From a virus (taxonomy: Duplodnaviria; Heunggongvirae; Uroviricota; Caudoviricetes), in the IMG/VR virus record IMGVR_UViG_2617270967_000016, positions 1 to 8,449 of that record: a stretch of DNA of 8,449 nucleotides. The stretch is one strand, 5' to 3'. Under the pieces are notes generated by a model. That model ran no database searches and had not been told where the DNA came from. It saw only the letters and a program-made list of their open reading frames with translations. Position numbers and translations under genes: made by a program. This document shows positions 2,916 through 7,832 of the stretch, in pieces; position 1 is the stretch's first letter, and every line of letters starts with the position of its first letter.

Positions 2916-2991
2916 GGCCCTTTAGCTCAGTGGTGAGAGCGAGCGACTCATAATCGCCAGGTCGCTGGTTCAAATCCAGCAAGGGCCACCA
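2916..2991 (+). tRNA. ileZ: tRNA-Ile2 (anticodon CAU; would score as Met by anticodon alone)
   Basis: 76-nt cloverleaf: acceptor GGCCCTT/AAGGGCC, D-arm GCTC...GAGC, anticodon loop CTCATAA, T-loop TTCAAAT, encoded CCA; resembles E. coli ileX and Stx-phage ileZ. Confidence 0.8.
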
Positions 2992-2998
2992 TCACATA

Positions 2999-3075
2999 CC
3001 GCCATTAGCTCATCAGGAAAGAGCGCCAGCCTTCGAAGCTGGTTGCGCGGAGTTCGGGTCCCCGAAGGCGGTTCA
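2999..3075 (+). tRNA. argN: tRNA-Arg (UCG)-like, degenerate (possible pseudo-tRNA)
   Basis: D-arm GCTC/GAGC and anticodon arm CCAGC-CTTCGAA-GCTGG fold well, but the acceptor and T stems each carry a mismatch, the T-loop is TTCGGGT (no A58), and the 3' end is TCA not CCA. Confidence 0.45.
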
Positions 3076-3088
3076 TTATCTGTATCCT

Positions 3089-3165
3089 GCGTTGTTAGCT
3101 CAGCCGGACAGAGCAATTGCCTTCTAAGCAATCGGTCACTGGTTCGAATCCAGTACAACGCGCCA
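3089..3165 (+). tRNA. argO: tRNA-Arg (anticodon UCU, reads AGA/AGG)
   Basis: 77-nt cloverleaf: acceptor GCGTTGT/ACAACGC, anticodon arm ATTGC-CTTCTAA-GCAAT, T-arm ACTGG-TTCGAAT-CCAGT, discriminator G, encoded CCA. Confidence 0.8.
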
Positions 3166-3205: not shown

Positions 3206-3402
3206 AAATGTCTCACAATTCAGACGGTTGACAGTTGTCTGTTTTGCGGGGAGTTTGTTAAAAGAAACTGGCATGGTGAATCCCCCTGTGCGGAGGGGCA
3301 ATCAGCGAGTAGGTATATGGGATAATCGCGGATTCAGGTGCTGGTACTGAATTCACCGGGAGGCACCCGGCACCATGCAATGGCACATAGCGCCACTCTC
3401 CA

Positions 3403-3426
3403 GCCCCTCTCCGGAGGGGCTTTCTT
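3403..3426 (+). terminator. rho-independent terminator-like hairpin
   Basis: gcccctc (3403-3409), loop tccg, gaggggc (3414-3420), then TTTCTT. Confidence 0.45.
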
Positions 3427-3430
3427 ATGG

Positions 3431-3460
3431 ACAAAAAAGCCCGCGCAGGGAGACGCGGGC
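3431..3460 (-). terminator. minus-strand terminator-like hairpin (convergent with 3403-3426)
   Basis: gcccgcg (3439-3445) / cgcgggc (3454-3460), 8-nt loop; A6 at 3433-3438 on + gives a U-tract after the hairpin on the minus strand. Confidence 0.4.
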
Positions 3461-4079: not shown

Positions 4080-4106
4080 ATGGCCCTTCGGGGCCATTTT
4101 CTCTCT
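4080..4106 (+). promoter_or_regulatory. stem-loop with UUCG tetraloop and U-rich tail between the E remnant and FI
   Basis: atggccc (4080-4086), loop ttcg, gggccat (4091-4097), then TTTCTCTCT; likely mRNA-stabilising or partial-terminator structure. Confidence 0.35.
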
Positions 4107-4118
4107 GTGGAGGAGTCC

Positions 4119-4514
4119 ATGACGAAAGATGAACTGATTGCCCGTCTTCAGGTGCTGGGTGAGCAACTGAACCGTGATGTCAGCCTGACGGGGACGAAAG
4201 AAGAACTGGTGCTCCGTGTGGCAGAGCTGGAAGAGGAGCTTGATGACACGGATGACGCTGCCGGTCAGGACACATCTGTCAGCCCGGAAAATGCGCTGAC
4301 CGGACATGAAAATGAGGTGGTATCAGCGCAGCCGGATACCGTGATTGATACGGCTGCTCTGGTCACGGTCGTGGCACTGGTGACGCTGCATACTGATGCA
4401 CTTCACGCCACGCGGGATGACACTGTGGCATTTGTGCTGCCGGGAACGGCGTTCCGTGTCTCTGCCGGTGTGGCAGCTGAAATGACAGAGCGCGGCCTGG
4501 CCAGAATGCAATAA
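4119..4514 (+). CDS. FI: DNA-packaging protein FI
   Basis: ATG 4119 after GGAGGAG; MTKDELIARLQVLGEQLNRDVSLTGTKEEL...VAAEMTERGLARMQ matches recalled lambda gpFI over its whole length. The track start at 4080 is an upstream extension. Confidence 0.88.
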   Translation: MTKDELIARLQVLGEQLNRDVSLTGTKEELVLRVAELEEELDDTDDAAGQDTSVSPENALTGHENEVVSAQPDTVIDTAALVTVVALVTLHTDALHATRDDTVAFVLPGTAFRVSAGVAAEMTERGLARMQ

Positions 4515-4525
4515 CGGGAGGCGCT

Positions 4526-4996
4526 GTGGCTGATTTCGATAACCTGTTCGATGCTGCCATTGCCCGCGCCGATGAAACGATACGCGGGTACATGGGAACG
4601 TCAGCCACCATGACATCCGGTGAGCAGTCCGGCGCAGTAATACGTGGTGTTTTTGATGACCCTGAAAATATCAGCTATGCCGGACAGGGCGTGCGCGTTG
4701 AAGGCTCCAGCCCGTCCCTGTTTGTCCGGACTGATGATGTGCGGCAACTGCGGCGTGGAGACACGCTGACCATCGGTGAGGAAAACTTCTGGATAGACCG
4801 GGTTTCGCCGGATGATGGTGGAAGCTGTTATCTCTGGCTCAACCGTGGGCAACCACGGGGATTTACAACGATTTGGCCGCCGCCTCAGCCTGTATGTGAA
4901 CACGGCAGCGGAAGCCATTCGCGCCCTGTCGATGCAGATGCCGGGCTTTCGCCTTCAGATGAACGAAGGCTGGTACCAGATACGTATTGCCGGTGA
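4526..4996 (+). CDS. FII: head-tail joining protein FII with its C-terminus replaced by read-through into the I region (disrupted)
   Basis: GGGAGG RBS; first about 105 aa match recalled lambda gpFII (MADFDNLFDAAIARADETIRGYMGTSAT...SPDDGGSC.LWL); after about 4850 the frame continues out of frame through I-homologous DNA to 4996. Confidence 0.7.
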   Translation: MADFDNLFDAAIARADETIRGYMGTSATMTSGEQSGAVIRGVFDDPENISYAGQGVRVEGSSPSLFVRTDDVRQLRRGDTLTIGEENFWIDRVSPDDGGSCYLWLNRGQPRGFTTIWPPPQPVCEHGSGSHSRPVDADAGLSPSDERRLVPDTYCR

Positions 4997-5477
4997 AGAC
5001 ACGGCACCGGAGGTGGTGTACGCCCGCCTTCACGAACAGCTGGGTGAGGGAACGGTCATCCACATTGTGCCGCGACTGGCCGGGGCCGGAAAGGGTGGAC
5101 TGCAGATTGTGTTGGGGGCGGCAGCCATCGTGGGCTCTTTCTTCACGGCCGGAGGCTCGATGGCGTTATGGGGTACAGCCCTGAGTGCCGGTGGTTTTTC
5201 TGCCACCACGATGCTGTTTTCACTGGGTGCCAGCATGATACTGGGCGGTGTGGCCCAGATGCTGGCCCCGAAGGCAAAAACACCGGATTACCGCGCAACG
5301 GATAACGGCAGACAGAACACGTACTTTTCCTCGCTGGATAACATGATTGCCCAGGGGAACCCGATGCCGGTGCCTTACGGGGAAATGCTGGTTGGCTCCC
5401 GCCGTATATCCCAGGACATCAGCACCCGTGATGAAGGCGGGGGCGGAAAGGTCGTGGTTATCGGGCGGCAGGGGTAA
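4812..5477 (+). CDS. I: tail assembly protein I, native N-terminus missing (first 16 codons derived from FII DNA)
   Basis: From GDLQRFGRR onward matches recalled lambda gpI to the C-terminus (…NTYFSSLDNM.AQGN…YGEM.VGSR…VVVIGR); the in-frame ATG at 4812 lies in FII sequence. Confidence 0.78.
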   Translation: MMVEAVISGSTVGNHGDLQRFGRRLSLYVNTAAEAIRALSMQMPGFRLQMNEGWYQIRIAGEDTAPEVVYARLHEQLGEGTVIHIVPRLAGAGKGGLQIVLGAAAIVGSFFTAGGSMALWGTALSAGGFSATTMLFSLGASMILGGVAQMLAPKAKTPDYRATDNGRQNTYFSSLDNMIAQGNPMPVPYGEMLVGSRRISQDISTRDEGGGGKVVVIGRQG

Positions 5478-5482
5478 AAAGA

Positions 5483-5581
5483 ATAAAAAAATCCCGCAGT
5501 GATCGCGGACAGGAACTGCGGGAGAGTTACGAAGATTAAGTGTAAGGAATTATTCTTATATCACGACAAAAAAATTAACGC
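5483..5581 (-). ncRNA. candidate small RNA (about 100 nt) between I and J
   Basis: Delimited on the minus strand by a near-consensus promoter (5588-5615) and a hairpin plus U-tract terminator (5486-5520); no start-codon-initiated ORF inside; this intergenic block is absent between I and J in lambda. Confidence 0.3.
5486..5520 (-). terminator. minus-strand rho-independent terminator
   Basis: tcccgcag (5491-5498) / ctgcggga (5513-5520), 14-nt loop; on the minus strand followed by ATTTTTTTATTCTTTTT. Confidence 0.45.
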
Positions 5582-5587
5582 AGAGAA

Positions 5588-5615
5588 ATTATACGCGCCA
5601 CGGTCAGTTTGTGAA
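5588..5615 (-). promoter_or_regulatory. sigma70-type promoter on the minus strand
   Basis: Minus-strand -35 TTCACA (+ coords 5610-5615), 16-bp spacer, -10 TATAAT (+ coords 5588-5593, perfect); AT-rich upstream; predicted start near 5581. Confidence 0.45.
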
Positions 5616-5690
5616 AATGTGAAGATATTCAGAATTTTTATGCCATTACCGGTTTTAACCAACAGGATTATCGGTGGGCATGAAAGAAAA

Positions 5691-5723
5691 CCCCGGTATC
5701 TGCTGATACCGGGGTTTCTCTTT
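5691..5723. terminator. bidirectional rho-independent terminator
   Basis: Perfect 10-bp stem ccccggtatc (5691-5700) / gataccgggg (5705-5714), loop tgct; TTTCTCTTT downstream and GAAAGAAAA upstream. Confidence 0.6.
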
Positions 5724-5820
5724 AGCATGGCAGAAATGTGTTTCATGCTTTTCGGGCGAAGGATATCCGACTTCTGTACGGAATGGCAAGTGGCGGTTAA
5801 TTTATTCAGGGGAAGGCTGT

Positions 5821-6621
5821 ATGGGAAAAGGTGGCGGTAAGGCACACACGCCTCGTGAGGCGAAAGACAATCTCAAATCCACGCAGATGATGAGCGTGAT
5901 TGATGCGATTGGTGAGGGACCGATAGAAGGCCCGGTGAAAAGCCTGCAGAGTATTCTGGTGAACAAAACCCCGCTGACGGACACGGACGGTAATCCCGTG
6001 ATACACGGTGTGACCGCGGTCTGGCGTGCCGGGGAGCAGGAGCAGACACCACCGGAAGGCTTTGAGTCCTCCGGCTCTGAAACTGTACTGGGTGTCGAAG
6101 TGACCAGGGCAAAACCGGTAACACGCACCATTACGTCAGCGAACATTGACCGCCTGCGGGTGACCTTCGGGGTGCAGTCACTGGTGGAGACCACGTCAAA
6201 GGGTGACCGTAATCCGTCCTCTGTCCGTCTGCTGATTCAGTTACAGCGTAACGGTAACTGGGTGACAGAAAAGGATGTCACCATTAACGGCAAGACCACC
6301 TCACAGTTCCTGGCCTCGGTGATTCTGGATAATCTGCCTCCCCGCCCCTTTAACATCCGGATGGTCAGGGAGACGGCGGACAGCACCACGGACCAGCTGC
6401 AGAACAGAACGCTGTGGTCGTCATACACCGAAATCATCGATGTGAAACAGTGCTACCCGAACACGGCCATTGTGGGGATGCAGGTGGATGCGGAGCAGTT
6501 TGGTGGTCAGCAGATGACGGTGAACTACCATAGCCAGGTAACACAGAGTTATGACAGCCCGCCGGTTCTGGTGGGCTTTTTTGTGGGGGGAATATGTCAG
6601 TACAGATTTCAGGTGTGCTGA
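5821..6621 (+). pseudogene. J: tail tip/host-specificity protein J, N-terminal about 238 codons only
   Basis: RBS AGGGGAAGG; MGKGGGKAHTPREAKDNLKSTQ...PPRPFNIRM...TLWSSYTEIIDVKQCYPNTA matches the recalled lambda gpJ N-terminus; homology ends near 6533 and the ORF stops at 6621; full J is over 1100 aa. Confidence 0.8.
6557..6582 (+). terminator. terminator-like hairpin immediately upstream of the stf start
   Basis: gcccgcc (6557-6563) / ggtgggc (6570-6576) with one G-U pair, loop ggttct, then T6 (6577-6582). Confidence 0.4.
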
Positions 6622-7832
6622 AGGATGGTACAGGAAAACCGGTACCGGACTGCACCATAGAGCTGAAAGCCACGCGAACGAGTGAGACGGTGATAGTCAC
6701 CACGGTGGCAGAGCACCAGCCAGGCGAAACGGGCAGTTACAGCATGCAGGTTGAGCCGGGGCGTTATCGTGTGACCTTGTGCGTGGAAGGTCGTCAGCCG
6801 GCATGCGCCGGCGAGATTGATGTCATGGCCGACGACGAACCGGGCACCCTGAATGCCTTTCTGCTCCGTGAAACGGATGCAGCGTATTATCCTGATGCAC
6901 TGAAGAAGCTGGAAGCGGCGGCGGATGAGGCTGTGCGCAGGGCGCGAGAAGCTGCTGAGAAAGCCGAAACTGCCGTGGGGCCACAGGGACTGAAAGGCGA
7001 CACCGGAGCAACTGGTCCACAGGGACAGAAGGGGGACAAGGGCGATACAGGCCCGGCAGGGCCACCGGGGCCGAAAGGGGATAAAGGTGACAAGGGCGAT
7101 AAGGGGGATACAGGTCCGAAAGGTGAGCAGGGCGATCCGGGCGGACCACAGGGACCGAAGGGCGACAAGGGGGATACAGGCCCGGCAGGGCTTCAGGGGC
7201 CAAAAGGGGATACGGGAGCCGCAGGCCCGGCAGGGCCTCAGGGGCCAAAAGGGGATACGGGAGCCGCAGGTCAGGCAGGGCCTCAGGGGCCAAAAGGAGA
7301 TACGGGAGCCGCAGGTCCGGCAGGACCTCAGGGGCCAAAGGGAGATACGGGAGCTGCAGGCCCGGCAGGACCTCAGGGGCCAAAAGGAGATACGGGAGCC
7401 GCAGGTCCGGCAGGACCTCAGGGGCCAAAGGGAGATACGGGAGCTGCAGGCCCGGCAGGACCACAGGGGCCAAAAGGGGATACGGGAGCCGCAGGTCAGG
7501 CAGGGCCTCAGGGGCCAAAAGGAGATACGGGAGCCGCAGGTCCGGCAGGACCTCAGGGACCGTCAGGAAGTCCTGACAGCGGACTGTTTGGTGTCGGTTC
7601 TTTTGTCCTTGCGGCATATTATGCGACGAGTTATTCGGGGGATATGGCACCGGGCTCAGCCATTGCCGGCTCATCACTGTCTGCATGTTGCCTTTCGAAT
7701 GGTACTCCCCTGGTTGCTTCCGGTAATGTGGGGGAGACCCGTTTACCGGGCACGTGGCGTGCATGTGGTCCGATGCTATGGACATCATCTCCGGGTATCA
7801 GACAGGCAGGATTATTTCAGCGCATATCATAG
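6594..7832 (+). CDS. stf: side tail fibre protein with a collagen-like Gly-X-Y region
   Basis: 412-aa ORF; N-terminus [17 protein letters not shown] resembles recalled lambda Stf ([17 protein letters not shown]...); residues about 129-327 are uninterrupted Gly-X-Y triplets; 85-aa Cys-containing non-collagen C-terminus. Confidence 0.8.
7180..7560 (+). repeat. tandem array of a 45-bp unit (about 8 copies) encoding [15 protein letters not shown]
   Basis: Near-identical 45-bp units with only synonymous or single-residue variation (PAG/QAG); preceded by more degenerate [12 protein letters not shown] triplets from about 6978. Confidence 0.85.

Follow-up and report, generated by a model that had tools for sequence, protein, structure and literature searches.

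The window, by which we mean the whole analysed stretch of 8,449 nucleotides, carries in order RusA, the antiterminator Q, a DNA methylase, tRNA-Met, tRNA-Arg(tcg), tRNA-Arg(tct), STnc100, a DUF1737 ORF, FI, an FII-like ORF running into the tail assembly gene I, a putative small RNA (sRNA) gene and 266 codons of J joined to an N-terminal tail-fibre gene. The STnc100 sRNA (3242-3432; Rfam 139 bits) lies downstream of the tRNA genes Met-cat, Arg-tcg and Arg-tct (2916-3165). This region, with tRNAs and STnc100 after Q and the methylase, is the PR' moron region known from Stx-like prophages; a relationship of STnc100 to PasD has been reported. The prophage itself is a deletion remnant: FI (4080-4514) is followed by an FII-like head-tail attachment ORF (4526-4996) that runs directly into I (4812-5477), so the genes from Z to K are missing. 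J, which measures 3474 bp in an intact relative, stops here at 6621 after 266 codons and overlaps an ORF for a tail-fibre N-terminus that contains collagen repeats (6594-7832); in the tail-fibre/collagen region at 6900-7500 the GC content reaches 0.685 and the AT skew is about 0.6. In complete E. coli genomes, at most 47% of the window is covered at a single place, and the I protein with the window-specific N-terminus was found to be 100% identical in three IMG/VR contigs.

The main subject of this work is the gap between the two tail genes. On the left it is bounded by the gene of tail assembly protein I (4812-5477, plus strand; Pfam Lambda_tail_I and the RefSeq annotation of an identical locus) and on the right by the 5' part of the tail tip gene J (5821-6621, plus strand; Pfam FNIII-A_GpJ). 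The ORF ends define a gap of 343 bp (5478-5820) with a GC content of 0.40-0.475 against 0.55-0.64 in the flanks, which bears out the AT-rich block of that length described in the first-pass annotation. The same annotation had I and J abutting in phage lambda, and this is roughly right, because only 60 bp separate the end of I (15444) from the start of J (15505) there. In intact relatives the 343-bp block lies inside a full lambda-like tail operon, between genes annotated as "tail assembly protein" and "gpJ". The block was searched for in 5426 complete E. coli genomes, a check of its recurrence having been suggested at the first reading, and 1659 of them contained it; the whole block is far beyond chance. 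Among the 20 RefSeq records listed, no feature was annotated under the match.

On the minus strand of the gap, a consensus scan found the promoter-like sequence TTCACA-16-TATAAT (5615-5588) with 11 of 12 matches to the consensus, and so the near-consensus promoter read there earlier was recovered independently. Its -35 hexamer TTCACA occupies 5610-5615 and its -10 hexamer TATAAT 5588-5593, with a spacer of 16 bp; altogether, the scan gave three promoter-like sites in 900 bp against 0.5 expected from shuffled sequences. The core ATAAT of the -10 hexamer is common to every allele examined, in the form of TATAAT, TAATAAT, GATAAT or AATAAT, and the -35 hexamer is kept in most of them and replaced in the allele of the Sakai strain. 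The scan also placed a minus-strand terminator at 5509-5493, followed by TTTTTTT. The complete intrinsic terminator extends over 5485-5522 of the minus strand and consists of the outer stem CCCGCAG/CTGCGGG (5522-5516 paired with 5499-5493), an A and a tract of seven U (5492-5485). Its end is 8 nt from the stop codon of I. The 7-bp G+C-rich outer stem with U7 has the form of a Rho-independent terminator, as belongs to the module bound by the proximal face of Hfq. This outer stem is unchanged in 20 of 20 distinct alleles aligned, and the inner part is variable. The whole unit has stayed intact in the window despite the heavy deletion of the surrounding prophage.

A primary transcript of 97 nt, GCGUUAAUUUUUUUGUCGUGAUAUAAGAAUAAUUCCUUACACUUAAUCUUCGUAACUCUCCCGCAGUUCCUGUCCGCGAUCACUGCGGGAUUUUUUU, is predicted at 5485-5581 of the minus strand, if the start is placed 7 nt after the -10 hexamer and the end in the U7 tract; the hairpin with a U-tract anticipated about 100 nt past the promoter corresponds to this terminator, with its seven U, 97 nt from the predicted start at 5581. 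The transcript can be aligned with PasB, an sRNA of enteropathogenic E. coli (EPEC) E2348/69, and with 29 other alleles. Its folding energy is -19.4 kcal/mol (z -2.1); the structure begins with a weak hairpin at the 5' end and closes with the strong terminator, and between them lies a central region that remains mostly unpaired in the consensus fold. There is no ATG in the 97 nt and just trivial GTG or TTG frames of 2-3 codons are present, in agreement with the earlier statement that no start-codon-initiated ORF lies within the unit. On the basis of alignment invariants, the consensus fold and complementarity analysis, the central region was delimited as UCCUUACACUUAAUCUUCGUAACUCU, RNA nt 34-59 (5523-5548, minus strand). 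It contains an anti-Shine-Dalgarno-like UCCUU together with AUCUU, which is invariant in the family, and is the counterpart of the segment of E2348/69 PasB complementary to the partners of that RNA in RIL-seq. Within the RNA of the window allele, UCCUUACAC and AAUCUUCG are candidate target-pairing stretches.

The element between I and J is already known: it represents an experimentally validated sRNA family and is not novel. PasB of EPEC O127:H6 E2348/69, encoded in prophage PP6 at NC_011601 1466343-1466261 on the minus strand (83 nt), was detected with the Northern probe AATCCCGCAGTGATCGCGGAGCT (PMC8550237, Table S6). This probe matches 20 contiguous bases of the window at 5490-5509 (20 of 23), and the matched site is the terminator of the predicted RNA. 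PasB was validated by Northern blot and RIL-seq as Hfq-dependent, its log2 values in a differential-expression table, taken as Δhfq versus wild type, being -6.8 and -2.4; it gave 37 RIL-seq interactions and is among the most connected sRNAs of the accessory genome in EPEC, with partners including map, espC, bfpB, cesD2 and the rpoS leader (PMC8550237). In published work on Pas RNAs it is the most broadly distributed of them and often the sole one in non-EPEC strains (PMC8550237; bioRxiv 10.64898/2026.05.13.724894).

The location of the unit in the window is that of the family. [quoted passage not shown] In E2348/69, PasB lies 6 nt beyond the stop codon of I (tail assembly protein), upstream of gpJ and antisense to both genes. 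The window allele shares with PasB the site between J and the adjacent I stop codon, the strand, identical -35 and -10 hexamers, with the spacer and the upstream region differing at a few positions only, the 5' GCGUUA with a U-run, the AUCUUC motif, the outer stem of the terminator and the U7 tract. The identity over the RNA as a whole is 74% (104 aligned columns), exact words are shared up to a length of 25 nt, and the central pairing region differs, being UCCUUACACUUAAUCUUCGUAAC in the window against UCCUUCACAUUGAUCUUCAUUUG in PasB. The right-hand module also differs, being the long form R1 in the window (189 nt, with a bidirectional hairpin) and the 87-nt form R2 in E2348/69. Judging from the TATAAT box, the start would be expected 15 nt upstream of the 5' end published for E2348/69 PasB on the basis of RNA-seq coverage, and hence either the RNA is processed or the start was wrongly placed. 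If the window RNA were trimmed as in the E2348/69 annotation, its 5' end would be near 5568.

Three further Hfq-associated RNAs can be attributed to the same family. EcOnc22, EcOnc23 and EcOnc24 of E. coli O157:H7 Sakai belong to prophages Sp15 (Stx1), Sp14 and Sp11, respectively, and were obtained by Hfq-CRAC; EcOnc22 gave a Northern band of about 85 nt and was destabilised in Δhfq (PMC4104026 and its Table S2). All three pairs of coordinates lie, in the current Sakai record, within the I-J gaps of these prophages, each gap being 240 bp long, and on the strand antisense to the tail genes. These three gaps are identical, and their antisense strand holds one promoter-terminator unit ending in ...UUAAUCUUCAUCGUUCUCUCCCGCAGCUCCGCUAACUCUGCGGGAUUUUUUU. 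The Sakai RNA shares with the window allele AACUCC, UUAAUCUUC and the terminator CCCGCAG...CUGCGGGAU7; it differs in an unrelated -35 region, in the 5' part and in the short form of the right module, and therefore represents a third allele. Between the coordinates given by Tree et al. 2014 (Table S2) and NC_002695.2 there is a shift of about +140 nt, as judged from AgvB (EcOnc01a; 1941920-1941981; +137 to +146), whose position in the current Sakai version was found with Rfam and used for calibration; a correction of this size is required whenever EcOnc sRNAs are placed on NC_002695.2. The placing of the Hfq peaks on the sRNA body rests on this shift, which we infer between the genome versions, and the strand, gap and size agree with the PasB family with or without it. 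The link between EcOnc22-24 and PasB was found in neither of the Pas papers: the term EcOnc is absent from the main text of the 2026 preprint (bioRxiv 10.64898/2026.05.13.724894), and the PasB row of Table S6 contains no note on an EHEC homologue (PMC8550237).

Summarizing these data, it may be concluded, with a probability of about 0.85, that 5485-5581 of the minus strand is the gene of a PasB-family sRNA, called EcOnc22-24 in O157, i.e., of a trans-acting, Hfq-dependent RNA that is carried by lambdoid prophages and transcribed against the late operon. We infer the expression of this particular allele, because its promoter and terminator are intact and its hexamers and outer stem match those of an expressed allele. 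The independently transcribed minus-strand sRNA of about 100 nt proposed in the first-pass annotation is accordingly supported, the gene having been demonstrated experimentally in related prophages. The window copy is, as judged from its sequence, a common unannotated allele with a divergent pairing region. In our opinion, this case indicates that reading at the first stage works, since a real and experimentally validated sRNA gene was recognised from raw sequence alone.

The distribution of the alleles was studied on 115 loci retrieved from IMG/VR with the conserved promoter block, which gave 30 distinct RNA sequences. All 30 share the -10 core ATAAT, the 5' GCGUUA and U-run, AUCUU, the terminator outer stem and the U-tract; the middle part occurs in several forms and the inner stem of the terminator is variable. 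The left (sRNA) and right modules recombine freely, so that the alleles are mosaic. The window type is the most frequent in this sample (36 of 115 loci). Its RNA body was found in 707 of 5426 complete E. coli genomes and the body of the E2348/69 type in 918; among 711 E. coli records matching the window allele, 614 do so at an identity of at least 99%. Copies of the window type are annotated in none of the RefSeq records listed and are absent from Rfam. The cmscan of Rfam proposed as a check at the first reading was run at the gathering threshold and at E<=10 within 5400-5900, and no family covered the gap, with weak terminator-driven matches only.

The published bacterial survey took the E2348/69 sequence of 83 nt as its BLAST query, with a word size of 28 (Zhu, Shabalina and Storz 2026, bioRxiv 10.64898/2026.05.13.724894). 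The window allele shares no exact word longer than 25 nt with PasB and was therefore probably missed and left uncounted by a survey with this word size. A scan of species-representative genomes with the 19-nt box gave mostly chance matches, the locus being found only in E. albertii and in one contaminant contig. The latter is a 3.4-kb contig filed under Streptomyces flavalbus, which contains an E. coli-type I-sRNA-J locus with a hybrid allele and is almost certainly a contamination of that assembly. The PasB family thus appears to be confined to Escherichia and Shigella, as published. Two loci of the IMG/VR set carry insertions: in L036 an IS element, which we take to be IS629-like from its end, sits between the -35 and -10 hexamers of the sRNA promoter, and in L022 an IS3-family element lies in the R1 module. 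These insertions indicate that the sRNA gene can be inactivated naturally.

To the right of the sRNA promoter there is a perfect 10-bp hairpin, CCCCGGTATC/TGCT/GATACCGGGG, with a loop of 4 nt (5691-5714). It is flanked by AAAGAAAA and TTTCTCTTT, an A-run preceding and a T-run following it, and stem, loop and flanking runs are exactly as had been described at the first reading. The folding energies are -29.9 kcal/mol (z -6.5) on the plus strand and -28.7 kcal/mol (z -7.4) on the minus strand; among the terminators given by the simple scan, this hairpin was absent. It is a bidirectional terminator-like element and characterizes the right-hand module R1, the 189-nt form present in the window. The other form, R2, which occurs in E2348/69, Stx2c phages and Sakai, is 86-87 nt long and has an unrelated hairpin, CAGGCAYC...GRUGCCUG, followed by UUGUUUUUG; one pair of its stem switches among C-G, U-A and U-G, which is a compensatory change. 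In every allele, in one of these two unrelated sequence forms, a hairpin and then a plus-strand T-run are situated between the sRNA promoter and J (5691-5723 in the window, about 2870-2900 in the E2348/69 locus L004 and 2040-2075 in the Sakai locus L125).

It had been suggested that the hairpin insulates the unit from the right, and as a general feature this is unsupported, for the other alleles have an unrelated hairpin with a T-run on the plus strand only. This orientation indicates that the shared feature is plus-strand termination before J and not protection of the sRNA. Such a sense-direction terminator inside a Q-antiterminated operon may stop polymerases that have not been modified by Q before they reach J.

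Upstream of the promoter, a CRP-like palindrome, TGTGA-AGATAT-TCAGA, was found at 5618-5633 as a candidate activator site. It has 9 of 10 core bases and is the sole match to TGTGA-N6-TCACA (with at most one mismatch) in the 8.4-kb window, where 0.21 would be expected. In all alleles the box lies at a constant distance of 24 nt upstream of the -10 hexamer, and its half-sites and their spacing are kept in 80 loci retrieved independently via the I protein; in the Sakai allele both half-sites are kept although the N6 and the -35 region differ. The centre of the box is 35 bp from that of the -10 hexamer, i.e., at about -44.5 from the predicted start, 3 bp beyond the canonical class II position of -41.5. 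Because of this difference of 3 bp, control of the sRNA promoter by CRP is put forward here as a hypothesis only. The hypothesis would fit the higher level of PasB in overnight LB than in DMEM (PMC8550237), which contains glucose. As other explanations of the palindrome, a Cra or FNR site was rejected by eye, since its half-sites match neither. The idea that the box serves a divergent promoter on the plus strand was likewise rejected: the scan gave no plus-strand promoter-like site, and the stretch, compared by eye, is not conserved between R1 and R2.

To consider how PasB pairs with its targets, we used its entries in the RIL-seq table that refers to the non-activating condition (PMC8550237). 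PasB occupies the RNA2 position in every one of these chimeras, as is to be expected if an sRNA depends on Hfq; its best-represented partners, by number of chimeras or of libraries, are E2348C_2648, the napF 5'UTR, map, hflX, fabR and the nlpD-rpoS region, and further ones are bfpB, caiF, espC, cesD2, tolC and raiA (PMC8550237). An annotated start codon is overlapped by 10 of 13 partner fragments. Complementarity was evaluated by ungapped local scoring of the sRNA against the 13 fragments, in comparison with 200 shuffles of the sRNA. Unconstrained RNAduplex had been dropped for this purpose, as it produced meaningless whole-length duplexes. E2348/69 PasB exceeded 200 of 200 shuffles (z 3.8), this significance belonging to the pooled statistic, as most of the single sRNA-target duplexes are not significant alone.

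The best sites lie in or next to nt 37-63 of PasB, UCCUUCACAUUGAUCUUCAUUUGUCUG, for 10 of the 13 partners, two of the ten extending a few nucleotides beyond; the binomial p of 0.008 (chance 27/67 per site) is to be read loosely, because the interval was picked after the results were known. Among the sequences targeted are AAUGUGAAGGA, which immediately precedes the start codon of yijD, and two at the starts of other genes, GAAGGUCAAUGUGAAG for napF and GCAAAUGAAGA for tolC. These data agree with a model in which the PasB segment headed by the anti-SD-like UCCUU pairs across the Shine-Dalgarno and start region. The rpoS gene of E2348/69 is annotated as frameshifted in RefSeq, and yet the nlpD-rpoS leader and start region (3102250-3102570) is a PasB partner with 56 chimeras; here AAAUGAAGAU is complementary to AUCUUCAUUU of PasB.

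The window allele, scored against the same E2348/69 partner fragments, showed complementarity at the level of chance (z -0.17). Its central segment (5548-5523) keeps UCCUU and AUCUUC and is otherwise substituted, so that the pairing sequence characteristic of PasB is absent. Judging by these features, the window allele most likely has the same chassis and mechanism and a partly different set of targets. According to the mechanism that we propose, the near-consensus sigma-70 promoter would start minus-strand transcription at about 5581, and the intrinsic terminator would stop the RNA at 5485, next to the stop codon of I. A tail of seven U is a typical Hfq-binding 3' end, and in a lysogen the RNA would bind Hfq, after which its central region, with UCCUU and the invariant AAUCUUC, would pair with mRNAs, mostly at translation-initiation regions. 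The window allele is thus predicted to be expressed and to control a partly different set of mRNAs.

Other explanations of the locus deserve attention. Transcription of the gene converges with that of the late operon, and 97 nt of the late transcript are perfectly complementary to the RNA, which might conceivably act mainly in cis, pairing with the I-J intercistronic late mRNA of its own prophage, or of a superinfecting relative that has the same allele, and triggering cleavage or altering the expression of J. The diversity of alleles, which are mosaic with freely recombining modules, would then reflect specificity between phages and not a difference in host targets. The position of the RNA speaks against this: it ends 240 nt upstream of the J start codon, or about 135 nt in the short-gap alleles, and therefore cannot mask the ribosome-binding site of J. 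Moreover, the RIL-seq partners are host and virulence mRNAs, with no I-J chimeras among the PasB rows for the non-activating condition (PMC8550237), and the RNA is intact in prophage remnants that are unable to make tails, such as the one in the window. For these reasons we regard a predominantly cis-acting RNA as unlikely, while a role in cis could coexist with a function in trans.

Still less probable is that the block is inert moron debris, or a transcriptional insulator, and that the window allele gives no functional RNA. Such an idea is suggested by the degraded state of the surrounding prophage and by the IS insertions in the two relatives mentioned above, and it is opposed by the intact -10 hexamer, terminator stem and U7, which are the same as in the expressed E2348/69 allele, by the identity of at least 99% in 614 of the 711 matching records, and by the fact that two sister alleles are expressed and bound to Hfq. 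The lowest probability of all, a very small one, is assigned to the gap encoding a small protein. ORFs exist there mechanically (5499/5641-5840 on the plus strand, 5845-5561 and 5789-5655 on the minus strand), and the record of phage ASU11 annotates the plus-strand one as a hypothetical protein of 66 amino acids; however, PHROG families match none of the three, the listed RefSeq records have no feature at this place, the ORFs read straight through the perfect 10-bp terminator hairpin, and the short-gap alleles do not contain that stretch. The empty PHROG scan also led us to drop a decayed protein-coding gene as the origin of the gap, including the case, raised at the first reading, of the block being the 3' end of such a gene.

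Returning to the PasB-family sRNA as the preferred reading, at least three strongly diverged alleles of it occupy the I-J slot, and the O157 sRNAs EcOnc22-24 belong to the same family as PasB. We tentatively suggest, at somewhat less than even odds, that the slot holds an allelic series of one sRNA gene, in which a constant chassis (the CRP-like box, the -10 hexamer, the 5' U-run, AUCUUC and the terminator) is combined with interchangeable pairing regions, and that the window allele, present in about 13% of complete E. coli genomes, has a regulon of its own, distinct from the PasB regulon, and is responsive to cAMP-CRP. It is exactly in the region matching the partners of PasB that the window allele, the most common one of the IMG/VR sample, differs. 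Differences in Hfq regulons from strain to strain could partly be traced to the allele carried by a prophage remnant.

Among other known systems, the family may be compared with AgvB and AsxR (RF02702 and RF02703), which are also short, prophage-borne, Hfq-bound RNAs whose 3' part is conserved and whose pairing part varies, transcribed convergently to the phage late genes at a fixed "moron" site. Identity with them was rejected, as their genes are located downstream of PR' and not in the I-J slot; in addition, the unit does not match them in sequence or structure: cmscan detected neither Rfam family, be it at the gathering threshold over the window or at E<=10 within 5400-5900, and the same search finds AgvB in Sakai. 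Unlike the PasB family between I and J, AgvB and AsxR lie downstream of PR'/stx, and they act as sponges of the sRNAs GcvB and FnrS, whereas the partners of PasB are mostly start regions of mRNAs. A broader parallel is given by phage morons, in which a gene together with a promoter and a terminator has entered as an autonomous unit between late genes (Juhala et al. 2000, as cited in PMC4104026). Like them, the I-J unit is extra DNA of lower GC content and brings along both a promoter and a terminator for expression from the prophage, but it encodes an RNA instead of a protein and points against the late operon.
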